The notes: generated by a model from the sequence alone, not told the origin. Numbered from the stretch's first letter, positions 7,222-35,031 are shown. The stretch: 35,031 nt of DNA from Ignavibacteriota bacterium (GCA_025357895.1 JANYLL010000084.1:1-35031); one strand, 5' to 3'. Made by a program: numbers and translations.

Positions 7222-7228
7222 TGTTTTG

Positions 7229-7311
7229 TGCCCGAGGCCGGACTTGAACCGGCACAGCCTTTCGACTACTGCCACCTGAAGACAGCGTGTCTGCCATTTC
7301 ACCACTCGGGC
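7229..7311 (-). tRNA. tRNA-Leu, anticodon CAG, class II with a long variable arm; no encoded CCA
   Basis: The minus strand is GCCCGAG TG GTGAAATGGCAGACAC G CTGTC TTCAGGT GGCAG TAGTCGAAAGGCTGT GCCGG TTCAAGT CCGGC CTCGGGC A. It forms a 7-bp acceptor stem, a 5-bp anticodon stem with loop TT-CAG-GT, a 4-bp variable-arm stem and a GTTCAAGT T-loop. Confidence 0.92.
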
Positions 7312-14827: not shown

Positions 14828-14857
14828 TTATTGGCATTCTATAATATAAGTAGTAAC

Positions 14858-18391: not shown

Positions 18392-18459
18392 AATGTACAA
18401 GTTAAAAGTCGAAAATATAAAATCAAAAGTAAAACACATCCTTTTGTCTATTGACTTTA

Positions 18460-18467
18460 TAATTTTG
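18460..18467 (+). promoter_or_regulatory. Candidate TAnnTTTG -7 element upstream of the RmlD-like gene
   Basis: TAATTTTG ends 8 nt before the ATG at 18476, and a TTTG lies at 18443-18446. This would imply a very short leader. Motif match only. Confidence 0.3.
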
Positions 18468-18475
18468 ACTTCCAG

Positions 18476-19435
18476 ATGAAAAGTCGTCATCGCGACCTTG
18501 TACTCATCACCGGTGTCCACGGTTTTCTTGGGCAGCATGTGCTTCGTACGTTTCTTGATGAAACACATTGCGACCTTATCGTTACTTCCCGTAATGAAAA
18601 ATTGCAGTTCACAGATGTTGCCGATGAGCCTCGTCTTCTTGCTTACCATAAACTTGATGTAACTGATCGCGCCTCAGTAAAAGATACTATTGGATTATTC
18701 AAGCCCGACGTGATCGTTAATTGTGCTGCAATGGTCAATGTTGATCTTGCTGAACATGAACGTGAATTAGCATGGAAAACAAATGTCAAGTCTGTAGAAC
18801 ATATCATTGAAGCAGCACGAAAAACCGATGGGCGGGTTGTTCATGTTTCATCAGATTATATTTTTGACGGGTCGAAAACTCCGTATGCTGAAAATGCGTC
18901 ACCGAGTCCTCTCAATTATTATGGCAGAACAAAACTTGCGAGTGAAAATGCTTTGCGAAGTTCAGGCGTGAATTATTGCATCATCCGCGCTGCATTTTTT
19001 TACGGAATTGAAGTTCAAAAAAAACCGAGCTTTGCTTTTAATGTCATCAAAAATTTAATTAACGACGAAACTTTCGAAGCGTTCGATGATCTTTTTGCTC
19101 CTCCCACATTGATCGATGATGTTGCTCTTGGTGTGGTTCGTGCAACTGAATATAATAAAAATGGAATATATCATATCGCTGGACCTGAAATGATCTCGCG
19201 TTATGAATTCGCTAAACGCATTGCAACCACGCTCCGTCTGAATCCTGAACTCATCATTCCAATTCCTTTCTCTGTAACGGATACTCGCGCTGAGCGTCCG
19301 CGGCATTCTTCCTTTATTACCTTAAAAGCACAAACCGAACTCGGTCTTCGCATCACCGGTATTGACGAAGGCTTACATGTTATGGTCAGAGGAATCCATG
19401 ACATGGAAGATGCAAGACAGATTGTGTATCAATAA
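18476..19435 (+). CDS. dTDP-4-dehydrorhamnose reductase (RmlD)-like NAD(P)-dependent sugar reductase/epimerase
   Basis: 319 aa. It has the Rossmann motif ITGVHGFLGQH, then KPDVIVNCAAMVNVDLAE, VHVSSDYIFDG and the catalytic YGRTK (YxxxK). Confidence 0.8.
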   Translation: MKSRHRDLVLITGVHGFLGQHVLRTFLDETHCDLIVTSRNEKLQFTDVADEPRLLAYHKLDVTDRASVKDTIGLFKPDVIVNCAAMVNVDLAEHERELAWKTNVKSVEHIIEAARKTDGRVVHVSSDYIFDGSKTPYAENASPSPLNYYGRTKLASENALRSSGVNYCIIRAAFFYGIEVQKKPSFAFNVIKNLINDETFEAFDDLFAPPTLIDDVALGVVRATEYNKNGIYHIAGPEMISRYEFAKRIATTLRLNPELIIPIPFSVTDTRAERPRHSSFITLKAQTELGLRITGIDEGLHVMVRGIHDMEDARQIVYQ

Positions 19436-19524: not shown

Positions 19525-20748
19525 CTATTCCTTCACAAACCGAATTGTCGATGCGTCATTTCGTATAAGATAAACACCAGATGGGTAATTTCTGATATTA
19601 ATAGCAATTTCATTGTTAAAAAAAGAATTGGCATTATTATAGATAATTCTTCCAAGAAAGTCGAAGATTTTGATATGACCAGAGACGTTTCGAACTGTAA
19701 CTGAGCTAGTCGCTGGATTTGGAGTGATTGAAAGTGAAGTACTCTTTTGTTCAGATGAAACAGTATTTATCGCTCCCGGTGTCAATACTTCTACATCATT
19801 CGTCGAATGATGTGGTCTGTAGCCGCCAAAGGTATAGAACAATCCGTTGTATACTTCCCCATTCAGACCAATTCTACTTGTAAATTCCCCGGAATAATGA
19901 GACGTTGTCCATGTCTTTGTCGCTGGATCAAAAATTTGCTGTTCAGTTGTATCCGGGTGGTTTAACCATTCGATCGGAAATGCAGAGCCACCTCCACCCA
20001 CGACATAGATTTTTCCACCGATGACTCCACTTGTGTGGAAACCTCTTCCTGTAAATATGTCAGAAACTATATGGTCTATGAATGTGGACGTCGTTGGATC
20101 GAATATCTGAACAGTACTTAAAAGGCTAACTGCGTCTTGTCCACCAATCAAATAGATTTTACCATCGATAACGTTCGAGCTCATACCTATCAGAGGAGTA
20201 TATTGCCCTGTCGTTTTAATGCCGCTCCAAGTATTTGAAGCAAGGTCAAATACTTCAATTGTATCAACTGCAGGAGCGCCGAAGCCACCAGAGCTACCTC
20301 CAAAAAGGTAGATACGACCATTTACTTCTGCACAAGTACTATTATCACGCGGTGTATAATGTCCAATCGTGGGTAGAGTCATCAAAGTTTTCGCCCGAGG
20401 GTCAACGATGACAATCTCCGTGTTCGTTTGGTTTTTATGATATCCTCCTATAAGATAGATTTTATTCCCAGCTGTGCAGTAAGCCATCTCAGAGTATGAG
20501 CTATCATCACCGACAAAGACTGGCGAGCTCCAGAGTTCTTTGACAGGATCAAAGCACTGTATTTGTGCTGTAGACTCGTCACCACCGATGAGATAGATTT
20601 TATCGTCGACGATTCCTGATGCTGCGTGATATCGAGCGTTAAAACCCGTTGCTATGTCTCGCGTCCAAACGCCCTGAGATAATATTATGTTTGGCGCAAC
20701 GAGCGCAATGAAGAATAATGCAATTCCGGAGTATGCCTTATTGTACAT
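19525..20748 (-). CDS. Secreted Kelch-repeat beta-propeller protein with a T9SS C-terminal sorting domain
   Basis: Six Kelch-type motifs are present (KIYLIGG x3, RIYLFGG, KIYVVGG, LFYTFGG). The signal peptide begins at MYNKAYSGIALFFIALVAPNIILSQ. The CTD is ITPNPATSSVTV...IKIFDFLGRII...SGVYLI. I placed the start at 20748 because the longer ORF-track start (20823) runs through the fusA terminator hairpin. Confidence 0.8.
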   Translation of the reverse strand: MYNKAYSGIALFFIALVAPNIILSQGVWTRDIATGFNARYHAASGIVDDKIYLIGGDESTAQIQCFDPVKELWSSPVFVGDDSSYSEMAYCTAGNKIYLIGGYHKNQTNTEIVIVDPRAKTLMTLPTIGHYTPRDNSTCAEVNGRIYLFGGSSGGFGAPAVDTIEVFDLASNTWSGIKTTGQYTPLIGMSSNVIDGKIYLIGGQDAVSLLSTVQIFDPTTSTFIDHIVSDIFTGRGFHTSGVIGGKIYVVGGGGSAFPIEWLNHPDTTEQQIFDPATKTWTTSHYSGEFTSRIGLNGEVYNGLFYTFGGYRPHHSTNDVEVLTPGAINTVSSEQKSTSLSITPNPATSSVTVRNVSGHIKIFDFLGRIIYNNANSFFNNEIAINIRNYPSGVYLIRNDASTIRFVKE

Positions 20749-20802
20749 AGTAACTACGGAACGCTGAAATGAAGGAGGTAATTCCGAGTAAGAACCACAA
20801 CC

Positions 20803-20834
20803 AAAATATAAAAAAGGGCACATGCAATGTGCCC
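20803..20834 (-). terminator. Rho-independent terminator of fusA
   Basis: The minus strand is GGGCACAT-TGC-ATGTGCCC, a perfect 8-bp GC-rich stem. It is followed directly by TTTTTTATATTTT and lies 32 nt after the fusA TAA. Confidence 0.7.
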
Positions 20835-23093: not shown

Positions 23094-23174
23094 GTTCAAA
23101 TTCTAGGGAAAATTTCTTGAACATATCAATAAATATCCCTGTTTGCCTACAAATTGATTTCCAATCCATTTATT

Positions 23175-24077
23175 ATGAAAAAATTCTTTCTGTTTTTTAG
23201 TAATCTTCTATTTATTGCTGCCAATCTCCACGCTCAATCTGCCCTGCCAGACACAGAAAAAATTAAGGCTATGACAACTCAGCTCAATGCTGCGATGCAA
23301 GCACAAGATTACAAAACTTCCGCTTCGATCGGCAAACAACTTATTGGTATTGGCATGAATGGCAACGATATCTATTTTGCCGAGGCTGCCGCATTGGGAC
23401 TTTCAGGTGATAAGACAGGCGCAGTTCTGTATTTCGATACTGCCGCATCCAAGGGTTTCAATAATGCCAATAATTGGCAGATGTTCACCGCGATGCTCGG
23501 CATTTCAAACGATCCGGTTATAACGAAGGATGGAGAGATCGTCAAAAAAAACAGCGAGAAAAATTCTTCCGTTGAAGCCAAGGATGTCAATCCAGAATTA
23601 CATAAACTTTATCTTGCGGATCAGAATGAGCGTACCGGAATATTTTCATCGAAGGGTCTGGATACGGTAAAAGTACTTCAACTAGTACATAACGATAGCC
23701 TGCGCAACAAACAAACGTATGCGTTATTAAAGAACAACTCTCTCAAAACCGCCCGAGATTTCGAAGAAGCAGGATTAATATTACAACATGGACATGATAC
23801 GAGCGATTACTGGACAGGACATCAACTGGCGCTTGCCTCGATAAAACTTGGCAACAATGGCGCCAAATGGCTTGCCGCCGCAACGCTCGACCGCTATTTT
23901 GTTGCCCAGCATAAACCTCAGAAATATGGGACGCAAAGTTTTTTTAATGAAAAGACAGACAAGCTAGAACTCTATGCAGTTGATCCCGCAGTAACCGACG
24001 CCGAACGCGCCGAATGGAACTGCCCACCACTTGCTCATGCTCTCGATGCAGCGAGTGCAGTTTATGATAAGAAATGA
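23175..24077 (+). CDS. Hypothetical secreted protein
   Basis: The signal peptide is MKKFFLFFSNLLFIAANLHAQ (ATG at 23175; the ORF track starts at TTG 23154). The mature protein looks helical. No family was recognised with confidence. The stop overlaps the next start (ATGA). Confidence 0.6.
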   Translation: MKKFFLFFSNLLFIAANLHAQSALPDTEKIKAMTTQLNAAMQAQDYKTSASIGKQLIGIGMNGNDIYFAEAAALGLSGDKTGAVLYFDTAASKGFNNANNWQMFTAMLGISNDPVITKDGEIVKKNSEKNSSVEAKDVNPELHKLYLADQNERTGIFSSKGLDTVKVLQLVHNDSLRNKQTYALLKNNSLKTARDFEEAGLILQHGHDTSDYWTGHQLALASIKLGNNGAKWLAAATLDRYFVAQHKPQKYGTQSFFNEKTDKLELYAVDPAVTDAERAEWNCPPLAHALDAASAVYDKK

Positions 24078-24622
24078 TTCTGCCTATGCTTGGCGATTAC
24101 CATCAATTCCCGGAAATAATACTGCGATCCGTCGTTGTCTATCTTGTCATTCTCGGAGCTTTCAGACTTGCAGGAAAGCGGCATATATCACAGCTTTCGC
24201 TGATTGATTTTGCACTGATCTTACTTATCTCAAACGCTGTTCAGAATGCAATGGTGGGTACAGACTCATCGCTTGGCGGAGGAATAGTTGCTGCCTTTTC
24301 ACTTCTTGCAGTAAATCTTATACTTTCGCGATTTATTTTTAAGAATAAATCATCACGTGAGTTTTTAGTAGGCGAACCAAAATTGCTTGTACGCAACAGT
24401 CAGGTAATTACATCCACAATGGATCATGAAGAGTTATCCGAAGATGATCTCAATGAAGCAATTCGCGAACACGGTTTTGCATCATTGAAAGAAGTACGAA
24501 CGGCGATTTTAGAATTAGATGGTTCAATTTCAATAATCCCCTACCCGCAAGACGGAGAACATATCGAGCACCATCTTGCGCCGATCATGAGGAAAAGACG
24601 GGGAAAGAAGAGGATGCTTTAA
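24074..24622 (+). CDS. DUF421 (YetF-like) membrane protein
   Basis: 182 aa. The N-terminal TM helices carry RLAGKRHISQLSLIDFALILLISNAVQNAM. The C-terminal ELSEDDLNEAIREHGFASLKEVRTAILELDGSISII is typical of the YetF/DUF421 family. Confidence 0.75.
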   Translation: MILPMLGDYHQFPEIILRSVVVYLVILGAFRLAGKRHISQLSLIDFALILLISNAVQNAMVGTDSSLGGGIVAAFSLLAVNLILSRFIFKNKSSREFLVGEPKLLVRNSQVITSTMDHEELSEDDLNEAIREHGFASLKEVRTAILELDGSISIIPYPQDGEHIEHHLAPIMRKRRGKKRML

Positions 24623-24632
24623 GGGTTAGTAG

Positions 24633-24685
24633 AACGGACATTCCTGTCCGTTAGGGGAAGTGACTGACGGATAAGAATGTCCGTC
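24633..24685. repeat. Two adjacent hairpins sharing the same arm sequence (ACGGA.A / TGTCCGT) between convergent genes
   Basis: 24633-24652 is AACGGACA-TTCC-TGTCCGTT, a perfect 8-bp stem. 24666-24685 is GACGGA-TAAGAATG-TCCGTC, a 6-bp stem. Neither has a U-tract on either strand. Confidence 0.5.
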
Positions 24686-24698
24686 CCACCGATCAAAT

Positions 24699-26963
24699 CT
24701 ATTGTATGTCGACACTTACCTTATCTGATAGCAGAGACTCTCCTCCGCTCTTCATCATCACCTTTATCGCATAAGAGGCTTTTTTAGATTTATAAAGCGA
24801 TGCATCACTGAATTTCATTTCGGATTTTGCAGTCGATTGATATTTTGAAATAGGTGCTCCATCTAAAGAACGATATATGACGAACCAATAATCTTCGTTT
24901 GATCCAGGATAAGTCCATGTCATGTTCACAGATTTTTTTGTAGGATCATATATCGCGGTAATATTAGATACTCCGGGTCTGACTCCGTTATCATAAGGTT
25001 TTCCGTGAACTGCATACGGGGAGAATGAATGATTGCCCGTTGTATCAAATGCTTCAAGCTGGTATTCATAATCGGTATTCTTTTTCACCATCGTATCGGT
25101 ATAACTTTCAACGTCAGCTTTGAAGGTCATAATTTCTTTCCAGTCGTCATTCTTCCCTATCCGTCGGTTCAACATATATTTCGCAATATCCTCGCTTGAG
25201 CTTTTTGCCCAATAGAGATGAATGGAATTGTCGGTTACTTTTACATCAGTGAATACAGGCGGTACAGGCGGAATTTTATCAGGCCGTTTGATCGCAAGTA
25301 TAGGAGAAAGATCGGAGTTGGCGTAGGACTTCTTAACCGCAGCAATCTTATAATATGCATAGGGCGTCAGCGTTTCTACTGAAGCAGTGTCAGTATACGA
25401 AGTATCCTGAATTGGATCTCCGTTGCGCGGCGTGAATTCATGTGAAGGATCATTCGCAAAAAATAATCGGTAGCCGAGAAGTGACCTTTCCATTCCGAGA
25501 TTCCAATGCAGACGAACTACTCCGTTCGTATCCATCGTCCCTGCAAAACCTGTTGGTATAGAAGGTGGGAATGTATCAACATACGGAGCATACACAGGCA
25601 GCGACTGTGCAACATTACCTGCCGTATCAACCGATGCAACAATATAATATGGTTCATCAAGCGCAGTATTTGCGTCGGTGAATGTCCGTAGAGTTTTCGG
25701 AAGCAATTGTTTTTTCAATTCTTCCTCAATCCGGCTCGAATCTAATTTTGAAAGATCGAATAATGGGTGAAAGCCATACATCGAGTTAAAACTTCGAAGG
25801 ATAATAAATCCCGCGAGATCACCTGTCGTATCTGCTATATCCCAATCAAGTTTTAAGGATGTAGTCGTAACTTCCGTTGGCGGTTTTACGAACGGACGTG
25901 CAGGAGGAGTAAGATCACGAGCATACGATTCTATTTCTGCATATTCACTTGTCTCGGCGAACGGAGTAATACCTGCGATACGGTATTTATAGACTTTATA
26001 ATTTACTGCATTGGTATCGGTATAAGAAGGGGCTTCTTCCTTGATCCCTTTTGGTGAAGAAAAAATAGTATAGGGATCTTTATTCATCGGATAGTAATGT
26101 TTTCCGCCATCCTCTGAACGGTCAAGATAATACCCTGAAAATTGAGTAATGCTCGGAGTTTTCCAGCGAAGCGTAACTTTCTTTTCACCAGGCTCTGCTG
26201 ATATATCGATCGGCGCCTGAGCTTTTCCGGGATCACTTGCATCGGCAAATGCATATCCATCATCGATCTTATAAAGACTATCTTTCGCAGCAAGATAAAT
26301 CCTATATGCATACTGCTTCCCTTTCTCAACTGATTTATCTACATATCGCAGACCAAGTCCTTCGGCACTGACGACATCAAAATCTGCAGAAAGGAGCGAA
26401 AAGCCGAATCTGCCGTTTAATTCATCAATTGCATTTCGAATTTGATTAGCACTTTCAGATCCGACATCAGTAGTTTGTGTAAATCTTTTTCCGTACAACG
26501 CTTGCGCTGATATTGCCGCAAATTTATTTCTGTCCTTTACCTGCTCTTTCCACACTGCTTCCGTCCATGGTTTTATGGGAGAAGCAGTAAGTTTTTTCTT
26601 CGACGCTTTGTTTATCGTGCCGTCTTTACTATAGGTGTATCGTTCAATCGAATACCCTATTCGGTTGGCAGTAATCCAGCCACCCGGTTTTGAGGGAGCC
26701 CACCGTAAAATAATTGAATCGTTGTATGATCTGGAAAATGCTTTAATACTTGCCCGATTTGGAACGCGATCAGAAGTATCTTGGCGAAGAGTTTCATTTT
26801 TCAAACGCTTCAGCGCAGTCGAATCCCCATGCTCAATAAGCGATTGAAAGATTTTCAGGCTATCTTCTGTAGGTGTAAGATCTTTCGCCTTTTTTTGAGC
26901 GAAAACATCGCTGCATAAAAAAGCGGTAATGAAGATGATAGTATAAAATATTCTTATCTTCAT
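24699..26963 (-). CDS. Secreted protein made of six fibronectin type III-like modules
   Basis: The signal peptide is MKIRIFYTIIFITAFLCSDVFAQ. Six modules each contain the pattern L-x-W ... (S/T)(Y/F)xD ... YxYx(I/V/L)xA, for example VTLRWK..SYTDT..YKYRIAG, VRLHWN..SYTDT..YYKIAAV and IHLYWA..SYTDT..YEYQLEAFD. The ATG overlaps the stop of the upstream gene (ATGA). Confidence 0.8.
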   Translation of the reverse strand: MKIRIFYTIIFITAFLCSDVFAQKKAKDLTPTEDSLKIFQSLIEHGDSTALKRLKNETLRQDTSDRVPNRASIKAFSRSYNDSIILRWAPSKPGGWITANRIGYSIERYTYSKDGTINKASKKKLTASPIKPWTEAVWKEQVKDRNKFAAISAQALYGKRFTQTTDVGSESANQIRNAIDELNGRFGFSLLSADFDVVSAEGLGLRYVDKSVEKGKQYAYRIYLAAKDSLYKIDDGYAFADASDPGKAQAPIDISAEPGEKKVTLRWKTPSITQFSGYYLDRSEDGGKHYYPMNKDPYTIFSSPKGIKEEAPSYTDTNAVNYKVYKYRIAGITPFAETSEYAEIESYARDLTPPARPFVKPPTEVTTTSLKLDWDIADTTGDLAGFIILRSFNSMYGFHPLFDLSKLDSSRIEEELKKQLLPKTLRTFTDANTALDEPYYIVASVDTAGNVAQSLPVYAPYVDTFPPSIPTGFAGTMDTNGVVRLHWNLGMERSLLGYRLFFANDPSHEFTPRNGDPIQDTSYTDTASVETLTPYAYYKIAAVKKSYANSDLSPILAIKRPDKIPPVPPVFTDVKVTDNSIHLYWAKSSSEDIAKYMLNRRIGKNDDWKEIMTFKADVESYTDTMVKKNTDYEYQLEAFDTTGNHSFSPYAVHGKPYDNGVRPGVSNITAIYDPTKKSVNMTWTYPGSNEDYWFVIYRSLDGAPISKYQSTAKSEMKFSDASLYKSKKASYAIKVMMKSGGESLLSDKVSVDIQ

Positions 26964-29900
26964 TTTTTAAACTTCATGATCTTCATTGCAGATTTATCAA
27001 TGTTCGATTTTTCGCCGGCGCTTCCGACGAAAAATTGTTTTTGCACCCAAGGCGAACCGATAGGAATCATCTCCTGAAATTTTTCACCTTGCACAAAATT
27101 GATATTGTAATAATTGTGATCGATCAAATGATATGTATCGGAAAAATTACCGAGATACAATCCATTGAAGTAGTTCAGCCAACTTGCATTATTATTGATC
27201 CAATCGTCTTTGCCATAGAGATATGAATCTTCATCGTTCGTCGCTCCGTTCGAATAATCGAGCATTACCATTTTCGATTTGAACCAGACGGCAAAATAAT
27301 CGTCAGGGATCCACTCCGTATGTTTGTAGGCGAGTTTCAAAGTATATTGAATACTGCCGAACATGATCGAACTTTTGAATGACTTCATCGAAGAAAATTT
27401 ACTTGACGATGATGGAGACGGAGCAGAAGAGATCGATAACTTCGAATCCGGTTTCGATACATACTGGACTGATTGCTGCTCCGAACTGTAATTATAAAAC
27501 GTCGGCCAGCCAAAAAAGAAAGCAAATTTATCCGTTCGAGGACCATCCCATATACCATTCCATACCATCGTCCAATAATGATCGTAAATATTCGGATATA
27601 CCCAATTTTTGTACCAAGCCTCTCTTACACTTGGAGCACGTGGTATTATGTATTGCGGACGGTAATCGGTCCAGAAAGATTTCGTCAAAGTTGCAGGTTG
27701 CATATCATAGATATCCCAACCTTCATTCGAATGATAATTCGCTGTGACCGCTTCATGATCTCCCCAATATTTATAATAATCAGTTGAAAGCCAGGAAAGC
27801 TGACTTACTTTATCAGCTACCGTATTATATTTACTCGTCCTGAAATAGAGACTGAAAAGTTCTTTTTCATTTTTGCTGACAGCCGTCGATTTCAGTTTAT
27901 TCGTTGTCATGCTTACAGTCGATGACGTGGTGTTCGTTCTCGATTGTGCAGCTGCGCTGCCGATACTCGATACAGTCTTCGATGCAGCATTGTTTTGCAA
28001 GGCAGCGATAGAGAATGATGTCGCAGCAAATATTGATCCGGGCTCTTTTCGAACGATCTGAAATATATAATTCTGTTCATTAGTCAGGCTCGGCAAATGA
28101 TAATAGATATATCTTCCGCTTGGTGTTGCACTGGTTTCCAGCGGCGGTCCGATTCCTCCCCCATTTCCGTTTACCGGTGTGAAACGGGCAACATACGTCC
28201 CGGGCATATCAAAAAGATATGATTGACTCTTCCACTCTTTCACAAATCCATTGATATGCTCACTCTGCAGTAAATAGCGCTGACCGTCTAAAGGTATAGT
28301 ATAGATGACATTACTCTTATCCACATAATCCGGACGAGGACCGGTCTTGAACTCACACGATGTATCTTGTGTGATCGCTGATTTATTCCGTTTTAATGCC
28401 GGGCTCCAACTTCCGCTGATGAGCTCTTCGCCATGAACTTTTACACGGCTGCGAAGCCATGTATATTCCGGAAATGTTTCTGTAGAAAGAAATCCTATGC
28501 TGTTGAGATCACTTGAAACTTTCCAATCTCCTGCTATACGAGCGTTATTATCTTTACGCTCTACGAAATAATCGTCAACGATGAGGCGGAATGTGCGTAT
28601 TCTGGTATTTCCATTACCATCAGTATAGGAATATTCATGTGGCTCATCAACCGATACGTTGAACCCGGCCTGAGGCGCGGCGAAGACACTTTGGTCTGTA
28701 CCGGTCGGATTCATATCCGATACAAAGTTCATCGAAAAAGGACTTTCACTCGAAACAACGCATTTATCCCCAAGTTCAAAGCTGAAACTACAGTTACCCT
28801 TTATGAGTCCATTTAAAATATTATAATGACCTCCTACAGTGCCCTCAACCCAAATGGGATTCGGTGCCATCACAATACATCGGGCGCCTGCACCAATATC
28901 AAGGATCGTAAAGTCATCATCATAAAAAAGTACATCAACATGCAAACCGATCGCACCGCTGACATAAGCATAAAGCTGGCCCATTGCATACCATCCATTA
29001 ATACCCGGAGGTTTGCCCGTATTATCGCAGAGTTTTGTCGGATCATGTGTTAAGGCAACATCAAATCCATACCCAAGTGAGAACTGTGCAAAGAATATAA
29101 GGAAGCGCTGCTTCCCTGTATTGATGCTCATGCTTGCGCCCATTGCAAATCCTTCCGTCGTTCCTCCGGAAATAGGCATGTGGACAGTCGGCAACGGACT
29201 TCCGATCGCTTCTTCAATATCTGACTTATGTTCGAAACTATTAAAATCCGGAGCAGGGATATCGGTGCCTGCCATGAGGTAGGCATCTACTTGTGCTAAG
29301 GTGAGGAGTTCAAGTTTTATTCGTTTATCAGGTGTTCCAATAAGTAAGTGCCAATTCGTTTGATCGATATGAAAATTCATCCATCCGGAAGCATAAAAAA
29401 TAGATTTAAAACTCTTATTGGTATTAAAGCCGATATTTGCATCGAAGATCTGGTTGACAAAATCATAAGAAAGATTAACGGTCAGAAACATCAAGGCATT
29501 ATCTCTATCCATAATAGATTTACAGATCAGCCAGCCGCTTCCTTGAATTCCGAGCATACCGAGTCCGCCGCCTGAAGTGAATTGTGCTGAGATCAGCACA
29601 TCGGCATTAAAAAGTACTGGTGAGGGAAACGTACCAAAACTTAACCCTGCGGCAATGCCGAAAGCGATACTGGAATTTGGAGTATAGGTAACACCGGAAT
29701 TTGATTTGCCCGGCTGATCGCTTGCATCCGCCGGTACTGCCATCGGATCCTTTCCTGATGTTCCGGCATGAAGATCGAAGGTTGGCAATTTTTTATCCAT
29801 GTGGTACCATACGCCGCCAAGGAATCCGTAAATACCTACGCCGGTCGAACCTATCGGAATGCCTGCATCAAGAAGAACACCTCCATCAATATACCAATAT

Positions 29901-32900
29901 CTATATCCGTTGACTGCTCCGAACTGTGCCGTAACATGAGCAGTAAGCAGTTTTGCAATTGTTGCAGTTATCGCCCCTTTGAATCCATCTCCATAGGTTG
30001 CATCGCTTTTATAAATATCTATTTGCCCTTTTATGCTTACGGCGCCGATATCTCCGCTAACTTTTACCTGATTGAGCTGGAATCCACCAAATTCAAACAT
30101 GGAGCCGCCGGTTGAGCGCGTGCCTATCTTGCCACAGACAGTAAGATTTGTCGAAGCAGAGAATGAACTTGTTTCGCCAGTTAATGCAAGATCAAAATCG
30201 AATGAGATACCCGCCCCTGGTGTCGCATCACAACCCGCTACTAATTTTAGATTCGAAATGCTGATCGGAAATCCGGAAACGGAATGATCCGGTGAAGCAA
30301 AGGACCACGACTTACACGTTATTCCTGTTTTCGTGGAGAACTCAAGATGCTCGAATTTAATACCCGCAAGATCTACTTTTAGCGATGAGCCTTTCTTTTC
30401 GTCATCTAATTTTCCGAGCGTTATTTTTCCGCTAATATCGGCATAAGCTTCGAAATCTGTTTTCGCGCCGCCTTTTAATCCGATGACCGATGTTTTTTCT
30501 ATTGTTGCAGTTGCGATCCAGAGTGGAATATTAATATCAGTATGGGGTGTGATTGTAAATGCATATTGCAAACCTGCATCTTTAACATTCAGAAGCGTTG
30601 CCCGATAATCAAGACCTGAATCAGTGATCGGCATGAGAATCTTCCCGCTCAAGAAAGCCTGAGTCATACTACTTGCTACAAAATCCAATCCGATTGTATC
30701 AAGGCTTGCACCCCATGAGCCGAAATCACCATCTCCAAGTTGTAAGATATGCAAAGCCCGAATACTTGCGCTGAAACCCATCTTATCTATTATGAGGCTC
30801 TTAACTGAGATCGAAGGCGGCTTTCCATCTTTGAATGTCTTGAGGGCTTTCGGAAGACGGATAACTGCGCTATCCATATAAAATCCATTCCAAGTCAATC
30901 CTTTATCTCCGCCATATCCATTAGGAAATTTTATTCCGGCAGGATTTTCAATATCCGATTCATCAAGCACGAGCTTTGAAACTTTGAACACAAAATCGGG
31001 CGCTGCAGCAGGAGCAAAATTCGGCATACTTCCCGTCAGCATCCAGTTACCTGCTTTCTTGAAATTTCCTACAAACCTTGCAATGACTTTCTTAGATATG
31101 TCATCGATAGGCTCATCTTTAATAGGATCGATAGGCACAAGCCAGTCACGCGGGAATATTGCTTCTGCGACAATATTAAATTCCTGAAAACCTTTGCAAT
31201 CCCACCGTATGAACGTGCCGGTATCCGGTCCGCCTTTGAAATGAAATTCGAAAGAGCCAACATTGGAAAATCCGAGATCGGCAGCCAGATACACCTTTGC
31301 TGTTCCATCGCCGCCGAGACCATCAGGAGAGATACAAACATCTTTCGCACCAAGGGCAAGTTTTTCTCCGGCGCCAAGGAACGGCAGATCGATCGAAGAG
31401 ACGGCATTGATACTTGCTTTTGTGGGAGTAAAAACAGCTCCGATAATTCCAAGAGTAACATGCTCACCTCCGCCTAAATCTTTATCAATTCCAAATGGCA
31501 ATTTGAATGGAATTCCGGTGAAATTATCAATTGTCTGGCTAAGTGAAGCTTTATGTGCCTTAAGTAAATCATCTTTTGTAAGTGAAGTGCCCTTATCTAA
31601 GTTATCAGCAACCTCATCTGCTATACTCACTGAAGGATCAACTACCCCCAAAGCATTACCATCATAGACTTCATTCTTAGAATTTACTTTAAGTCCGGAA
31701 AACTTAACCGCTAATTTTATTGACTTTAAATACGGAATCTCAACTGAGCCATCACCTGATAAACCTGACCCGCCGCCTGAAGCAGTCTTTAATGTTAAAT
31801 GAAATTTTCCAAGGGTTAGTATATCACCCGATTTGAACGATCCGCCCGATGGAGTCTTATCTGATGGAAGCGACGCTGTACAATCTCCTTTACATGCGCC
31901 TGATGCTGTGTCTTTTTTTGTAAGAGTCGAATCTTTCGATGTAGAATCTTTTTTAGTTATTATAGAATCCTTCAAAGAATCTTTAGGATTCTTATTCCCA
32001 TTATTTCTATTAGCGCTGCCATACGTGAAACTGCATGCCGAGCTATATCCGTCATTACGGATGCTCGTAGATTTTTGCGGGTCAATTGCCCGAACACGCC
32101 AGGCATAACTATTTCCAGGGATTAGCGCAGGCTCGGATGGTCCATAGGTAAAGATCGAAGTGCTCTGCGTTGTCTGGAAAAACGGATTTCCCATAAATGA
32201 TTTGAACGCGGCTTCAGGCTGCTGATTTCCTTTCAGATCGATCAGTGAGAATTCATATTGCGGACTACTTCCTGAAAGTGCGATTGGCGTCCATTGAAAT
32301 TGCACGAGCTGCGGATTTACTGGAGAAACGATGCTGCTGCAAGCCGGATTAATAGTCTGCGGAGGATCGACATACGCAATGTTAAAAGTCTTACAATCTT
32401 GATTCGATAGCTGAATATTAGGATTGTTATAATCAACAACTTGAACGCAAATCCGGTACGTGCCTTCAGGAAGCATCTTCGTCCTAATGATCGTATTCTT
32501 ATCACCTCCGGTTACATCAACAGAGCCGGCATCATTGATCGGAAAATCGTTTAAGTTTAATGGAAGAGATGCATTCGGTCCGATGAGAATAGGTCTTCCG
32601 GCATAATTTTTCTTGATCGTGATCGTCGTTCCACCACCGAGTTTTTCTGCGAAACCTGCGAAGCGTACTTGGTAAGACTTTTGAGAAGTATTGACAAGGA
32701 CAATAATGAGTTGATTTGGATTGGATGACCATCGTGATAGATCAGCGGGTACAGGTTGTGAAACCGTAATATTGCAAATGATGGGAGTTGGCTGTGCTTT
32801 AAGATTCGATGCAACCAGGACAATAAAAAGCACTCCGATAAATAATGATCGGATAATGACTTCAACACTCTTCCTCACAGGCAACTCTTTCTGAATAAAC

Positions 32901-32902
32901 AT
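26960..32902 (-). CDS. Giant (1980 aa) exported protein of unknown family
   Basis: An uninterrupted 5.9-kb ORF with AAGGAG 6 nt upstream of the ATG. The N-terminal signal/anchor is SLFIGVLFIVLVASNLKAQ. Two Cys-containing beta-sandwich-like modules are followed by a K/D/S/T linker and long strand-rich regions. No catalytic motif, T9SS CTD or lipobox was recognised. Confidence 0.85.
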   Translation of the reverse strand: MFIQKELPVRKSVEVIIRSLFIGVLFIVLVASNLKAQPTPIICNITVSQPVPADLSRWSSNPNQLIIVLVNTSQKSYQVRFAGFAEKLGGGTTITIKKNYAGRPILIGPNASLPLNLNDFPINDAGSVDVTGGDKNTIIRTKMLPEGTYRICVQVVDYNNPNIQLSNQDCKTFNIAYVDPPQTINPACSSIVSPVNPQLVQFQWTPIALSGSSPQYEFSLIDLKGNQQPEAAFKSFMGNPFFQTTQSTSIFTYGPSEPALIPGNSYAWRVRAIDPQKSTSIRNDGYSSACSFTYGSANRNNGNKNPKDSLKDSIITKKDSTSKDSTLTKKDTASGACKGDCTASLPSDKTPSGGSFKSGDILTLGKFHLTLKTASGGGSGLSGDGSVEIPYLKSIKLAVKFSGLKVNSKNEVYDGNALGVVDPSVSIADEVADNLDKGTSLTKDDLLKAHKASLSQTIDNFTGIPFKLPFGIDKDLGGGEHVTLGIIGAVFTPTKASINAVSSIDLPFLGAGEKLALGAKDVCISPDGLGGDGTAKVYLAADLGFSNVGSFEFHFKGGPDTGTFIRWDCKGFQEFNIVAEAIFPRDWLVPIDPIKDEPIDDISKKVIARFVGNFKKAGNWMLTGSMPNFAPAAAPDFVFKVSKLVLDESDIENPAGIKFPNGYGGDKGLTWNGFYMDSAVIRLPKALKTFKDGKPPSISVKSLIIDKMGFSASIRALHILQLGDGDFGSWGASLDTIGLDFVASSMTQAFLSGKILMPITDSGLDYRATLLNVKDAGLQYAFTITPHTDINIPLWIATATIEKTSVIGLKGGAKTDFEAYADISGKITLGKLDDEKKGSSLKVDLAGIKFEHLEFSTKTGITCKSWSFASPDHSVSGFPISISNLKLVAGCDATPGAGISFDFDLALTGETSSFSASTNLTVCGKIGTRSTGGSMFEFGGFQLNQVKVSGDIGAVSIKGQIDIYKSDATYGDGFKGAITATIAKLLTAHVTAQFGAVNGYRYWYIDGGVLLDAGIPIGSTGVGIYGFLGGVWYHMDKKLPTFDLHAGTSGKDPMAVPADASDQPGKSNSGVTYTPNSSIAFGIAAGLSFGTFPSPVLFNADVLISAQFTSGGGLGMLGIQGSGWLICKSIMDRDNALMFLTVNLSYDFVNQIFDANIGFNTNKSFKSIFYASGWMNFHIDQTNWHLLIGTPDKRIKLELLTLAQVDAYLMAGTDIPAPDFNSFEHKSDIEEAIGSPLPTVHMPISGGTTEGFAMGASMSINTGKQRFLIFFAQFSLGYGFDVALTHDPTKLCDNTGKPPGINGWYAMGQLYAYVSGAIGLHVDVLFYDDDFTILDIGAGARCIVMAPNPIWVEGTVGGHYNILNGLIKGNCSFSFELGDKCVVSSESPFSMNFVSDMNPTGTDQSVFAAPQAGFNVSVDEPHEYSYTDGNGNTRIRTFRLIVDDYFVERKDNNARIAGDWKVSSDLNSIGFLSTETFPEYTWLRSRVKVHGEELISGSWSPALKRNKSAITQDTSCEFKTGPRPDYVDKSNVIYTIPLDGQRYLLQSEHINGFVKEWKSQSYLFDMPGTYVARFTPVNGNGGGIGPPLETSATPSGRYIYYHLPSLTNEQNYIFQIVRKEPGSIFAATSFSIAALQNNAASKTVSSIGSAAAQSRTNTTSSTVSMTTNKLKSTAVSKNEKELFSLYFRTSKYNTVADKVSQLSWLSTDYYKYWGDHEAVTANYHSNEGWDIYDMQPATLTKSFWTDYRPQYIIPRAPSVREAWYKNWVYPNIYDHYWTMVWNGIWDGPRTDKFAFFFGWPTFYNYSSEQQSVQYVSKPDSKLSISSAPSPSSSSKFSSMKSFKSSIMFGSIQYTLKLAYKHTEWIPDDYFAVWFKSKMVMLDYSNGATNDEDSYLYGKDDWINNNASWLNYFNGLYLGNFSDTYHLIDHNYYNINFVQGEKFQEMIPIGSPWVQKQFFVGSAGEKSNIDKSAMKIMKFKK

Positions 32903-32983: not shown

Positions 32984-32991
32984 CAAATATA
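32984..32991 (-). promoter_or_regulatory. Candidate TAnnTTTG -7 element upstream of the giant gene
   Basis: The minus strand reads TATATTTG, 81 nt before the ATG in the 281-nt divergent spacer. Motif match only. Confidence 0.3.
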
Positions 32992-33183
32992 CAACAAAAT
33001 TACGTGAAGCCGCCAATAAAATTGAAATATTTTTTGTTGTAACTTAACCTGTCAATCCCTACTTCGTTTAGCTAAAATCCCAATATCCCCCCTATCCTTA
33101 GGAATGACAGACCACTTCTTGCTGTTATCGCCCCGCGCAACGGCAAAAACTGATAGCTGTTCGCTGTTAAATATTACCTATAA

Positions 33184-35031
33184 ATGATCGCACTCGAACA
33201 TCTTGCAGTACAATTCGGCGGAAAGTATCTTTTCCGCGATGTGACCTTTACTATCCGAATCGGTGATCGCGTCGGGCTTATCGGTCCTAATGGCGCTGGT
33301 AAATCCACGATGATGAAGATCATTGCCGGTTTTCAGAGTCCAGAAGAAGGCGAAGTCCAGATTCCTCGTGATTATACACTTGGTTATCTGCCTCAGGAGC
33401 CAACGCTTGAAGAAGGAGCATTAGACCGTAGCATTCTGGCTGAAGCACTTCGTTCGAAAGAAGACCTGCTGGCAATTACTGAAGAACTTGAAGTTGTTCA
33501 GCAGGCATTAACTGATGATTCTGACGACCATGAATCACAGGCATATCATGACTTGCTCGATAGATTCGGAGAGCTTCATCATAAATTTGAAGATTTAGGT
33601 GGATTCACCATAGAGGCAGAATCTGCAAAGGTCCTAGCCGGACTTGGATTTACTGAAAAAGATTTCGAACGACCGCTTCGTGAATTCTCAGGAGGCTGGC
33701 AGATGAGAGTTTTGCTTGCAAAGCAGCTCATAAAACGACCTGATATACTTCTTCTTGATGAACCGACAAACCATCTTGATCTTGAGAGTATGATGTGGCT
33801 TGAAGAATTCCTAAACGGCTACGAAGGTTCAATGCTGCTTATTTCGCATGACAGAAAATTTTTGAATGATGTTACGGGGAGAACTGCTGAGATTTCTCCT
33901 GGCGGCAAATGCGAAGTTTTCCCTGGCAATTACGACTATTACGAAAAAGCCAAAGCCGAACGCGAAGCATTGCTTGAAGCGCAATCGGCAACTCTTGATC
34001 TAAGAAGAAAAGAACTTGAGAGATTCGTCGAGCGATTCAAATCGAAGGCTTCGAAAGCTAAGCAGGCGCAGTCCCGCGTAAAAATGCTTGAGCGTATGGA
34101 GCGCGTTGAACTTGCTTCAAAAGCTCCGAGTGTTCACTTCTCCTTCCCTACTGCTCAGCAATCCGGGCGAACTCCATTCGAAATCGAGGATGCAGCAAAG
34201 AGCTATGACGGAGTTCGTGATATTTTTTCTCATTGCGATCTTCGCATTGAGCGCGGCGAACGAATTGCCTTCCTCGGAAAAAATGGCGAGGGAAAAACGA
34301 CGATGGGTAAAATTCTCGCTGGCTCCGAAGAATTTACAAAAGGCGCATTAAAGTTAGGGCATAACGTGACCATCGGATATTATGCTCAGCATCAGGCTGA
34401 TGATCTTGATCCGAAACTTACAGTACTTGAAACAGTTGATTCACTTGCCAGAGCTTCCTTCTTCAATGGTGGCGAAAAAAATGGCATCAATTATACTGAA
34501 GGTCAGCTTCGCAGTTTGCTTGGCGCATTCTTATTCCGCGGCGATGATGTTTTTAAGCAGGTACGAGTCTTATCCGGCGGTGAGAAATCACGCCTTGCAA
34601 TTGCCAAGATGTTACTTGAGCCTTGCAATACCCTCATCCTCGATGAGCCAACGAACCATCTTGACATGCGTTCGAAGGAAGTATTGAAACAGGCTATCAT
34701 GGCATTCGAGGGTACGGTAATTGTTATCAGCCATGATCGCGATTTCCTTGAAGATCTTGTTGAGCGCATCATTACTTTTGGTAAAGGCGTAGTTAAAGAT
34801 TATATGGGTTCGCTTGAGCAATATCTCGATGAACTCCATGAGACAGAGCTTGCACGCATCAGAGGAAAGAAAACATTTAAAGATGAAAAGCCAAAACAGC
34901 AAGTTATTGAGAAAAATGAACCGGCAAAAAACGGCAAAGAAGATAAGCGCTCAAAAGCAGAGAATCGTAATGCCAATTCCCAAAAGGAAAAACCTCTGAG
35001 AAATAAGATCAAAAAGATCGAAGATGAAATT
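33184..35031 (+). CDS. ABC-F family ATPase (two ABC domains, no TM domain) with a Lys-rich C-terminal extension; 3' end cut by the window edge
   Basis: I translated frame 1 by hand from the ATG at 33184 and it stays open to base 35031. It is absent from the ORF track because no stop falls inside the window. Domain 1 has GPNGAGKST, LSGGWQMRVLLAKQL and LLLDEPTNHLD. Domain 2 has GKNGEGKTT, LSGGEKSRLAIAKML and LILDEPTNHLD. The tail is K/E-rich. Confidence 0.9.
   Translation, partial: MIALEHLAVQFGGKYLFRDVTFTIRIGDRVGLIGPNGAGKSTMMKIIAGFQSPEEGEVQIPRDYTLGYLPQEPTLEEGALDRSILAEALRSKEDLLAITEELEVVQQALTDDSDDHESQAYHDLLDRFGELHHKFEDLGGFTIEAESAKVLAGLGFTEKDFERPLREFSGGWQMRVLLAKQLIKRPDILLLDEPTNHLDLESMMWLEEFLNGYEGSMLLISHDRKFLNDVTGRTAEISPGGKCEVFPGNYDYYEKAKAEREALLEAQSATLDLRRKELERFVERFKSKASKAKQAQSRVKMLERMERVELASKAPSVHFSFPTAQQSGRTPFEIEDAAKSYDGVRDIFSHCDLRIERGERIAFLGKNGEGKTTMGKILAGSEEFTKGALKLGHNVTIGYYAQHQADDLDPKLTVLETVDSLARASFFNGGEKNGINYTEGQLRSLLGAFLFRGDDVFKQVRVLSGGEKSRLAIAKMLLEPCNTLILDEPTNHLDMRSKEVLKQAIMAFEGTVIVISHDRDFLEDLVERIITFGKGVVKDYMGSLEQYLDELHETELARIRGKKTFKDEKPKQQVIEKNEPAKNGKEDKRSKAENRNANSQKEKPLRNKIKKIEDEI

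Follow-up and report, generated by a model that had tools for sequence, protein, structure and literature searches.

A giant TANFOR-related exported protein and its FN3 partner belong to a widespread envelope gene module of Bacteroidota-like bacteria

The gene pair and its export signals

The window, a 35,031-nt stretch of DNA from an Ignavibacteriota bacterium, contains two minus-strand ORFs, both starting with ATG, that encode a giant exported protein of 1980 aa (26960..32902) and a 754-aa FN3 partner (24699..26963). As described in the first-pass annotation, the stop codon of the giant gene and the start codon of the FN3 gene share a 4-nt ATGA overlap (26960..26963, minus strand) that couples the two ORFs, and in most orthologous loci the two genes are joined just as closely (-3 to +20 nt). 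Given their length and homologues at E=0, both ORFs are far beyond chance. A candidate promoter, TTG ... 21 nt ... TAtaTTTG (32984..33015, minus strand), was read from the sequence ~80 nt ahead of the start of the giant gene; it resembles the Bacteroidetes -33/-7 consensus. The next gene after the FN3 gene encodes a DUF421 protein in convergent orientation, and between the two gene ends lies an inverted repeat read from the sequence, ACGGACATTC ... GAATGTCCGT (24640..24690), which received no score in a terminator scan and is a possible bidirectional terminator. Housekeeping genes surround the locus.

Judged by reading the sequence, both proteins begin with a Sec-type leader, consisting of a K/R n-region and a hydrophobic core followed by LKA|Q in the giant protein (predicted signal peptide, residues 1-36; 32795..32902, minus strand) and VFA|Q in the FN3 protein; the AQ immediately preceding the mature start is conserved in family alignments (A1 and A2). 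It had been claimed that neither protein carries a lipobox, a T9SS C-terminal domain (CTD), or an enzymatic, nucleotide-binding or toxin motif, and each of these claims held. By eye, the giant leader has no Cys, and the "AFLC" of the FN3 leader is an atypical lipobox (Leu at -1) that fits less well than a type I site at VFA|Q. Neither protein matched a type A or type B CTD (Por_Secre_tail or CHU_C) at E≤1, whereas two exported proteins encoded within 12 kb in the window (14831-18391 and 19525-20823) matched in this search and served as positive controls. No enzymatic, nucleotide-binding or toxin family matched either protein, and the sole family match was fn3 (PF00041) on the 754-aa protein (56.9 bits, gathering score 25, three scored stretches), which also matched titin/RPTP FN3 chains in PDB. 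The FN3 partner consists of a signal peptide (residues 1-22), a helical N-region (23-71) and six FN3-like modules assigned by eye (72-245, 246-353, 354-466, 467-565, 566-661 and 662-754).

Architecture of the giant protein and its relationship to TANFOR proteins

The giant protein has no match in Pfam, NCBIfam or PDB, and its homologues align at E=0 to 1e-100. The modular layout proposed earlier is broadly right; however, the beta-rich stretch is better described as one continuous core (residues ~461-1400) followed by a post-core region. On the minus strand, the signal peptide is followed by a TANFOR-like beta-sandwich (residues ~37-175; 32378..32794) and, based on alignment A1, a second, FN3-like sandwich with the motifs FQWTP and YAWRVRA (residues ~176-296; 32015..32377). 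A low-complexity K/D/S/T linker read from the sequence (residues ~297-343; 31874..32014) leads to an adaptor beta domain (residues ~344-425, core-HMM positions ~5-100; 31628..31873), a helical linker with an LPxGI motif (residues ~426-460; 31523..31627) and the all-beta core of ~940 aa (28703..31522). The post-core region (residues ~1401-1780; 27563..28702) contains beta-sandwich-like parts, an S/T-rich linker and an FRTSxY motif, and 59-98 of the homologues that we collected, split-type core proteins among them, align with it. The Trp/Tyr-rich C-terminal tail (residues ~1781-1980; 26963..27562) is lineage-specific, with matches in only about 10-18 closer relatives.

AlphaFold predicted the adaptor as a small domain of five strands and placed the helices of the helical linker at residues 100-126 of the modelled segment; pLDDT was <50 at the start of this segment, which is part of the K/D/S/T linker. 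The core was modelled with long strands throughout (pLDDT 77.5), and its global packing is uncertain (pTM 0.44). Its most conserved stretch reads NGWYAxGQxYAY / LPNPxW. Foldseek returned no informative structural homologue of the core (TM ≤0.16), and SprA was absent from its top 50 hits. Searches with Pfam, NCBIfam, PDB and Foldseek did not place the giant protein in the SprA/Sov, TamB/AsmA or adhesin families; according to the first-pass annotation, a match to any of these would have spoken against a new system.

The giant protein had been called unassignable, but its N-terminal module can be placed: it is distantly related to the TANFOR domain (TIGR02542). Residues 36-307 align with homologue P0022 at 42% identity (E=5e-63), and P0022 itself matches TIGR02542 over residues 34-147 (E=1e-8), as does P0010 over residues 28-150 (E=4e-11). 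The ~150 aa that follow the Sec signal are thus homologous to proteins that match TIGR02542, as 13 of 25 aligned homologous N-termini do. These homologues score 17-43 bits (E down to 3.6e-11), below the curated cut-off of 67 bits, and the giant protein itself has no match to the model at E≤1. The FN3-like sandwich is kept alongside the TANFOR sandwich across the 25 N-termini (A1), and members of this N-terminal module family match fn3-like Pfam families.

This homology ties the giant protein to the TANFOR proteins, which Jana, Salomon & Bosis (2020, PMC7073777) proposed as Bacteroidetes polymorphic toxins and whose secretion route they left open. Like those proteins, it is large and Sec-exported, with a conserved Ig-like module directly after the signal and an Fn3 gene nearby; Fn3 (COG3401) is enriched around TANFOR genes (P=1e-56; PMC7073777). 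In contrast, a conserved beta-rich core takes up most of the giant protein, and the gene module described below is absent from PMC7073777. Compared with a TANFOR polymorphic toxin, it has no C-terminal toxin domain, its C-terminus is conserved, and no immunity gene lies downstream. One T. forsythia TANFOR protein has been detected in published vesicle proteomes.

Conserved gene pairing and an outer-membrane barrel

The core family comprises 2164 clusters at 50% identity, and a search with the most conserved core stretch located relatives in the genomes of at least 266 species. Synteny was counted in 41 well-flanked species loci, in 38 of which the FN3 partner lies within 2.5 kb of the core gene (within 250 nt in 33); it is missing in three. 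In all six loci L001-L006, the giant gene is followed by one for a full-length FN3 orthologue (29-41% identity across ~700 aa), and the window likewise combines a core gene with an adjacent orthologous FN3 gene of ~700 aa. Because gene order varies among loci, selection for inheriting the genes together is a better explanation than descent of one arrangement. This co-inherited pairing supports the earlier proposal of a dedicated envelope module. The proposal that it has two components needs revision, because most relatives have a third, a ~560-aa outer-membrane barrel gene: it lies within 8.1 kb in 32 of the 41 loci, accompanied by the FN3 gene in 30, and a linked barrel is missing in about a quarter. 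The literature that we searched contained no description of a module of barrel, core and FN3 genes, which is a widespread, undescribed envelope module of Bacteroidota-like bacteria; its hosts are Kapabacteria/Ignavibacteriota, Bacteroidota and relatives (FCB group). The module genes are multi-copy and patchy, and one genome contains two paralogous systems (L002 and L043).

The barrel protein starts with a signal peptide and usually ends in an aromatic residue. Its AlphaFold model has 24-26 strands and no periplasmic domain (pLDDT 87.6, pTM 0.72). The top fold match is MtrB (6r2q_B; E=3e-10, TMq 0.44), and FimD/PapC usher pores (TMq up to 0.48) and SlpA-type barrels are also among the matches. 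Both MtrB and the usher pores are barrels in which folded protein is held or through which it passes. The family has no sequence match in Pfam, NCBIfam or PDB, and it is unrelated to PorP/SprF, PorV and SprA. Searches of the 35-kb window with tblastn and HMMs gave no barrel homologue, and the gene is likewise absent beside the core in the loci of the closest relatives (L001, L007, L002 and L043); the third part is therefore assumed for this organism.

The combination of a ~560-aa outer-membrane protein gene with a giant all-beta gene recalls tamA-tamB, and the core could be a barrel-docked beta-taco or groove of a TamA/TamB-like or Lpt-like machine for lipid movement or outer-membrane biogenesis, in which the FN3 protein would be a spacer in the periplasm. 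Many core strands do have one strongly hydrophobic, uncharged face, and Foldseek ranked LptD and the ApoB100 beta-belt highest for the core, but with TM-scores of only 0.10-0.16. There is also no AsmA/DUF490 match, the leader with its conserved A|Q looks cleavable rather than like an inner-membrane anchor, and a barrel of 24-26 strands without POTRA is not Omp85. A housekeeping lipid transporter would explain neither the link to enzyme- and toxin-bearing TANFOR proteins nor the multi-copy, patchy genes, as in L002/L043, and we consider this reading quite improbable.

Other known systems resemble parts of the module. In two-partner secretion (FhaC/FHA, CdiB/CdiA), a ~560-aa barrel is likewise encoded beside giant Sec-exported proteins that share a conserved N-module and can carry polymorphic C-terminal toxins; however, the giant protein has no TPS (Haemagg_act) domain or beta-helix, the barrel lacks the POTRA domains and 16-strand fold of Omp85 (ShlB/POTRA_2), and the FN3 protein is an additional obligatory part. 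Folded Ig-like domains pass through the pore of an usher, and both the clients and the accessory of the module consist of Ig-like units. Searches found neither a match to the usher or PapD-chaperone families nor a pilin-type subunit, and the barrel has no plug or periplasmic domains. MtrB is a 26-strand barrel that sheathes another protein across the outer membrane in MtrAB, whereas the module barrel has no sequence relationship to it and the module includes no cytochromes.

Fusions, fissions and a candidate export route

In the window, the TANFOR module is fused to the core in one protein. In 21 of the 41 loci, the core protein lacks a TANFOR module and carries a signal peptide of its own, and separate proteins with TANFOR and adaptor domains are encoded nearby; core and TANFOR cargo are separate genes in many Bacteroidia, as in a Maribacter operon that encodes the barrel, a TANFOR protein, the core and the FN3 partner. 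Split-type core proteins start with a signal peptide followed by the helical linker (~426-460 in the giant protein), and the adaptor sits on the separate TANFOR proteins instead. Its presence on 11 of ~15 such proteins near split-type core genes suggests that clients dock on the core. Passengers on these proteins include an M12 peptidase or an alpha/beta-hydrolase. A metagenome scan seeded with TANFOR identified TANFOR proteins without a core that are flanked by barrel and FN3-type genes, as well as TANFOR-barrel fusions as single ORFs (L115, with two tandem ORFs, L122 and L125). These TANFOR-linker-barrel fusions share with classical autotransporters (type Va) the order of N-terminal passenger and C-terminal barrel; however, the module barrel has 24-26 rather than 12 strands and no homology to theirs, and the window parts are separate proteins. 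SprB and CTD genes adjoin the module in the Maribacter and Flammeovirga loci.

Membership in the wider class of proposed polymorphic toxins, glycine/aromatic amphipathic strands and a lineage-specific final ~200 aa would suit an antagonistic effector, in which the core forms a pore or translocator into a target cell and the Trp/Tyr-rich tail is a toxin or receptor-binding tip. We give this little credence: no toxin domain is present, the next gene downstream is the convergent DUF421 gene rather than an immunity-type gene, and housekeeping genes surround the locus. The tail is 54-84% identical to those of the orthologues P0002 and P0003 and is thus not swapped as a polymorphic toxin tip would be. 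In split loci, the core is invariant and the toxin- or enzyme-bearing proteins are separate.

The T9SS is present in module-bearing organisms, and Jana et al. hypothesized that TANFOR proteins are T9SS substrates (PMC7073777). Under this hypothesis, the giant and other TANFOR proteins would carry an unrecognised sorting signal, and the FN3 protein and barrel would be surface-attachment accessories, likened to the SprF/PorP-type partners of SprB. SprB and Por_Secre_tail genes are enriched in TANFOR neighbourhoods, and >95% of TANFOR genomes encode a T9SS (PMC7073777); the two CTD proteins in the window and the SprB/CTD genes beside the Maribacter and Flammeovirga modules agree with this. The giant protein resembles T9SS cargo in its hosts, its neighbourhoods and its large, beta-rich, exported nature. 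On the other hand, neither protein has a CTD of either type, the conserved element is N-terminal rather than C-terminal, and the co-inherited large barrel is of a different family from PorP/SprF, PorV and SprA and in some cases forms one protein with the TANFOR module. We regard the giant protein as unlikely to be a T9SS substrate.

A surface layer or adhesin pair that is structural only and exports no other proteins, in which the barrel is an anchor and the TANFOR link reflects a shuffled Ig-like anchor domain, seems to us rather unlikely. Large size, beta-rich and Ig-like content, the six-FN3 partner and the SlpA-type fold matches of the barrel would fit such a pair, as would the fused lineages such as the window, in which no client TANFOR gene was seen nearby. 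The retention of the adaptor on most separate TANFOR proteins beside split-type core genes speaks against it. This reading overlaps with the explanation that we prefer, because both anchor through the barrel.

That explanation, to which we assign a probability of about one half, is that the ORF pair encodes the core and FN3 subunits of an FCB envelope module that exports or displays TANFOR proteins independently of the T9SS. The module would be a dedicated, probably T9SS-independent, apparatus for export or anchoring, and the pattern of fusions and fissions points to export or anchoring of TANFOR-module proteins at the outer membrane rather than to a periplasm-spanning bridge. The analysis shows the homology, the conserved synteny, the gene fusions and fissions and the fold of the barrel; from these we infer a topology, a direction of transport and a role for each part. 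The giant and FN3 proteins would cross the inner membrane by Sec, and the N-terminal TANFOR module would then engage a dedicated large-lumen barrel, encoded elsewhere in this genome if it has one, that would export the giant protein or anchor it at the cell surface. The coupled FN3 protein may act as a stoichiometric accessory, either a periplasmic chaperone or a stalk that runs through the barrel or is attached to it. In split relatives, the barrel, core and FN3 proteins would form the invariant apparatus, and TANFOR-adaptor proteins with peptidase, hydrolase or toxin passengers would be its variable clients. With such an invariant apparatus and variable clients, the module would be a T9SS-independent route for the export or display of TANFOR proteins, and it may be the missing export or anchoring route of the TANFOR exported toxins.

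The gene pair and its surroundings

Two minus-strand ORFs encode a 1980-aa protein (26960..32902; hereafter, the giant protein) and a 754-aa protein (24699..26963; hereafter, the FN3 partner). Both had been described in the first-pass annotation and were recovered here, with the TGA stop codon of the giant ORF and the ATG start codon of the FN3 partner sharing the sequence ATGA at 26963-26960. That annotation also assigned Sec-type leaders to both products, and this agrees with the leaders read from the sequence (…VLVASNLKA followed by QPTP in the giant protein; …FLCSDVFA followed by QKK in the FN3 partner) and with the “AQ” immediately ahead of the mature N-terminus, which is kept in homologue alignments. 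It had further stated that the pair lacks a type IX secretion system (T9SS) C-terminal sorting domain (CTD); neither protein matched this domain at E≤1, whereas both neighbouring exported proteins did, namely a Sortilin/Vps10-like protein (14831-18391, plus strand) and a Kelch propeller protein (19525-20823, minus strand). The giant protein had zero Pfam, NCBIfam or PDB sequence matches. The FN3 partner, in which six FN3-like modules were delimited by eye, matched fn3 (56.9 bits) and FN3 chains, titin among them, and nothing else.

The flanking genes encode AddA-like helicase, SdhA-like, CDF transporter, desaturase, arginine decarboxylase, SMC, EF-G and ABC-F proteins; because these are housekeeping genes, a mobile-element or prophage origin of the pair was ruled out. 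Downstream, a 307-aa ORF without a Pfam match (23154-24077, plus strand) shares its last 4 nt with the start of a gene for a DUF421 (YetF C-terminal) protein (24074-24622, plus strand), and this second pair is convergent with the FN3 partner gene. An inverted repeat between the convergent gene ends (ACGGACATTC ... GAATGTCCGT, 24640-24690; 10 bp, ~30-nt loop) may be a bidirectional terminator. On the other side, the gene for an ABC-F type ATPase (33184-35031, plus strand) points away from the giant ORF and continues past the end of the window. The same divergent arrangement is present in locus L001, which encodes an 84%-identical giant; there, a PIN_3 gene and a 79-aa gene resembling a toxin-antitoxin pair (18274-18916) lie between the FN3 and DUF421 genes, and the window is without them. 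A scan for sigma-70 promoters and terminators gave background-level signals, an Rfam scan of the window gave no matches, and a tRNA-Leu (CAG) gene (7228-7311, minus strand) was the sole RNA gene found in the window.

A TANFOR-type N-terminus and a large beta-rich core

We searched the giant protein against 5.8 billion proteins; this search identified two close full-length orthologues (84% and 77% identity), ~20 giants of 1,800-3,400 aa with 24-35% identity over most of their length, and ~25 more proteins that have only the first ~300 residues in common with it. One match carries the name “TANFOR domain-containing protein.” In an NCBIfam scan, 13 of 25 aligned homologous N-termini matched the TANFOR domain (TIGR02542), including those of homologues P0010 (residues 28-150, E=3.6e-11) and P0022 (residues 34-147, E=1.2e-8), with all matches falling below the curated 67-bit cut-off. 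The window's giant protein did not match TIGR02542 at E≤1; its residues 36-307, however, aligned to P0022 with 42% identity (E=5e-63), and because P0022 itself matches TIGR02542, we consider the first N-terminal beta-sandwich of the giant protein a predicted remote TANFOR domain. The second is an FN3-like domain, which always accompanies the TANFOR domain. Both beta-sandwiches reported in the first-pass annotation are thus present and can be specified further, whereas its statement that no family could be named for the 1980-aa protein did not hold: the giant protein is distantly related to TANFOR proteins and has a new architecture. A profile search of the TANFOR module against the PDB returned nothing meaningful.

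The one substantive paper on TANFOR that we found (Jana, Salomon & Bosis, 2020; PMC7073777) described a Sec signal together with variable toxins at the C-terminus, and it proposed these proteins as Bacteroidetes polymorphic toxins. It reported enrichment of Fn3 (COG3401, P=1e-56), SprB and T9SS-CTD genes near TANFOR genes, and it left the secretion route open, with T9SS as a guess. A later paper counted TANFOR among “trafficking domains,” and a TANFOR protein from T. forsythia has turned up in vesicle proteomes. Given the two CTD proteins nearby, the organism studied here has T9SS cargo near its TANFOR-type pair, and these genes parallel the published neighbourhood enrichment.

The N-terminal module is followed by a core, which AlphaFold modelled (residues 330-1440, 26 sequences; mean pLDDT 77.5, pTM 0.44) as long beta-strands nearly throughout, apart from a helical linker around residues 430-455. 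Foldseek identified no real structural neighbour of this model in the PDB and nothing among viral structures. The top PDB matches were LptD, SlpA, the ApoB100 beta-belt and ushers, and homology to these was rejected, as they are generic large-beta-sheet matches with TM-scores of 0.10-0.16. A profile search of the conserved core stretch against the PDB also returned nothing meaningful. Comparison of core segments with each other using hhalign gave weak signs of internal repetition (probabilities 46% and 69%). A count of amphipathicity on the predicted strands was set aside as evidence: the barrel serving as positive control gave values similar to those of the core, and the measure does not tell a membrane barrel apart from a sandwich or a groove. 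With HMMER, 1.84 billion representatives clustered at 50% identity were searched exhaustively; the core family came to 2,164 clusters at E≤1e-3 and to 1,394 at the stricter E≤1e-30. In three still larger homologues (P0174, 5511 aa; P0268, 3698 aa; P0274, 4237 aa), the core was matched in 6-7 separate stretches, which suggests tandemly repeated core-like regions.

Family-wide conservation continues past the core through residues ~1441-1780, and the last ~200 residues are common to closer relatives only. This tail is 54-84% identical in the two orthologues and is therefore not a swapped toxin tip. If the giant protein were itself an effector or pore-former, a toxin, an immunity gene or C-terminal polymorphism would be expected, and we found none of these.

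A conserved neighbourhood with fusions and fissions

The first six loci came from Kapabacteria, Rhodothermales, Spirosoma and metagenomes, with giants 31-84% identical. In all six, the giant gene is directly followed by a gene for a ~700-aa FN3 protein that is a full-length orthologue of the window's FN3 partner (29-41% identity over ~700 aa), and in four of the six, a gene for a ~560-aa protein without a Pfam match lies directly upstream; the four are mutually homologous. We then used the most conserved core stretch (NGWYAxGQ) to query one genome per species (GTDB); core relatives were found in 266 species, and 80 loci were kept. They derive from Kapabacteria, Ignavibacteriota, Chlorobiota-labelled MAGs, Kryptonia, Bacteroidales and Cytophagales, as well as Saprospiraceae, Aquimarina, Niastella, Persicobacter, Marinigracilibium and Perlabentimonas, the closest being a Candidatus Kapaibacterium MAG (86%).

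Our own HMMs for four elements were run on every ORF of the kept loci, and counts were taken from 41 well-flanked loci. An FN3 partner was encoded on the same strand within 2.5 kb of the core gene in 38 of the 41, so the pairing noted in the first-pass annotation extends across related genomes; in 33 loci, the distance was ≤250 nt. The gene for the ~560-aa protein was within 8.1 kb of the core gene in 32 loci, and 30 loci had both. Gene order is variable (with OMP denoting the ~560-aa protein: OMP-core-FN3, core-OMP-FN3 or OMP-FN3-core). Neither the window nor the loci of its closest relatives (L001, L007, L002 and L043) have a linked ~560-aa gene, and looking for it in the 35-kb window, L001 and L002 did not find it. 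The pair in the window very probably belongs to a conserved module of barrel, core and FN3 partner. L002 and L043 lie in one genome (GCA_038210275.1, Ca. Kapaibacterium) as two paralogous pairs of fused giant and FN3 genes. At L003 (10001-17258; the same as L055), the giant gene is present as 1817-aa and 611-aa ORFs ahead of the FN3 gene, reflecting either a frameshift or assembly error or a genuine split.

Proteins of the ~560-aa family begin with a signal peptide, show beta-hairpin sequence as soon as the mature part starts and usually end in an aromatic residue (…YSF, …ISF). At least 280 homologues exist, every one annotated as hypothetical; the family had no Pfam, NCBIfam or PDB sequence match and nothing meaningful in a profile search against the PDB, and a few homologues carry a precomputed OMP_b-brl match. 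AlphaFold predicted 24-26 long strands and no separate periplasmic domain (73 sequences; pLDDT 87.6, pTM 0.72), and based on this model, the third module component is a predicted large outer-membrane barrel. The best Foldseek match was MtrB (E=3e-10, TMq 0.44), alongside FimD/PapC usher pores (TMq up to 0.48) and, at lower rank, SlpA, LptD and TonB-dependent receptors. Both MtrB and the ushers are barrels whose large lumen accommodates folded protein or lets it through.

The TANFOR module, adaptor and core are fused in one protein, as in the window, at 20 of the 41 loci. The remaining 21, mostly from Bacteroidia, Cytophagia and Flavobacteriia, are split: the core protein (~1,450-1,570 aa) has its own signal peptide, is without the TANFOR module and begins at the helical linker with an LPxGI motif. 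Separate TANFOR proteins are encoded near the core gene in 12 of the 21 split loci, and ~11 of 15 such ORFs keep a ~90-aa adaptor segment (core-HMM positions ~5-100), which in the window's giant protein is covalently joined to the core. Their passengers differ and include a reprolysin-like M12 peptidase (L082, L017), an alpha/beta-hydrolase (L080) and domains without assignment; nucleases and other toxins have also been reported as TANFOR passengers (PMC7073777). In a Maribacter sp. (L087, 10001-22409), the order is barrel, TANFOR protein P0030, a 332-aa ORF, core and FN3 partner, with an SprB/T9SS-CTD giant after the split module. This species and Persicobacter diffluens (L079, 5707-20675) are cultured species with the split module.

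A TANFOR-seeded scan of metagenome contigs, which is not biased towards the core, identified coreless TANFOR proteins flanked by barrel and FN3-type genes (L096, L097, L103, L120 and L123; also L089). It also identified single-ORF fusions of the TANFOR module, a Pro/Ala-rich linker and a ~500-aa barrel at L115 (6046-8775 and 8805-11191, in tandem), L122 (3577-6387) and L125 (5960-8857; TANFOR module at residues 43-317, barrel at 463-963). Products of these metagenome contigs are rich in Ala, Pro and Arg. With an N-terminal passenger and a C-terminal barrel, the fusions resemble autotransporters, and by the Rosetta-stone argument the TANFOR fusions suggest physical cooperation of the TANFOR module with both the barrel and the core.

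A possible route for export or anchoring

Beside the TANFOR homology of the N-terminus, the large conserved core family, the core/FN3/barrel synteny, the barrel fold and the fusions and fissions, all of which are shown by the analysis, we propose a mechanism. After Sec export, the TANFOR module would engage its dedicated barrel, which would export the TANFOR-bearing protein or anchor it at the cell surface. The FN3 partner, translationally coupled here and in most relatives, would be a stoichiometric accessory, acting as chaperone or stalk, and the core would be either the commonest passenger or a platform where adaptor-bearing TANFOR clients dock. With TANFOR module, adaptor and core in one polypeptide, the window's giant protein would be a “self-loaded” form without a recognisable toxin. 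We give this export or anchoring function roughly even odds (about 0.5); its main weakness for this organism is that the barrel gene was not seen in the window.

The published guess, T9SS export through an unrecognised signal, is disfavoured because the proteins have no CTD whatever, the conserved element is N-terminal and a dedicated barrel exists. A lipid or biogenesis machine of the TamAB or Lpt type is suggested by the gene pairing and by the LptD and ApoB matches, but family membership, barrel type and leader type all contradict it, and it leaves the link to enzymes and toxins unexplained. For fused lineages, a purely structural adhesin or S-layer-like complex with the barrel as anchor is possible, and it overlaps with the export or anchoring explanation.

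Among known systems, the module is most like two-partner secretion or chaperone-usher export in its dedicated barrel, N-terminal targeting module, Ig-like parts and polymorphic passengers; however, membership tests for both families were negative. They were also negative for TamB/AsmA, SprA and T9SS cargo, so the known families that the first-pass annotation had named as potential matches (SprA, TamB/AsmA) do not account for it. We found no description of a barrel, core and FN3 module in the searchable literature. As a tentative extension, the barrel and FN3 partner, with the core as platform, could form an unrecognised, T9SS-independent export or anchoring system of the FCB group; the TANFOR module would be its targeting signal, the system would be the missing route for TANFOR toxins and hydrolases, and the window would hold its “self-loaded” fused form. 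We see a substantial, if less than even, chance that the module represents an entirely new category of secretion or anchoring system.

Until now, only the T9SS guess addressed how TANFOR proteins leave the cell. The TANFOR module is now tied genetically, by synteny across dozens of species and by gene fusions of two kinds, to three co-inherited, uncharacterised families: the barrel, the giant beta-rich protein and the six-FN3 protein. If the module is an exporter or anchor, it would be a new outer-membrane secretion or display route in a phylum with an important place in the microbiomes of gut, mouth, soil and sea, and its genes would be concrete deletion targets for interbacterial antagonism. 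If it is merely a structural surface complex, it would all the same be a large, widespread and unannotated component of the envelope.
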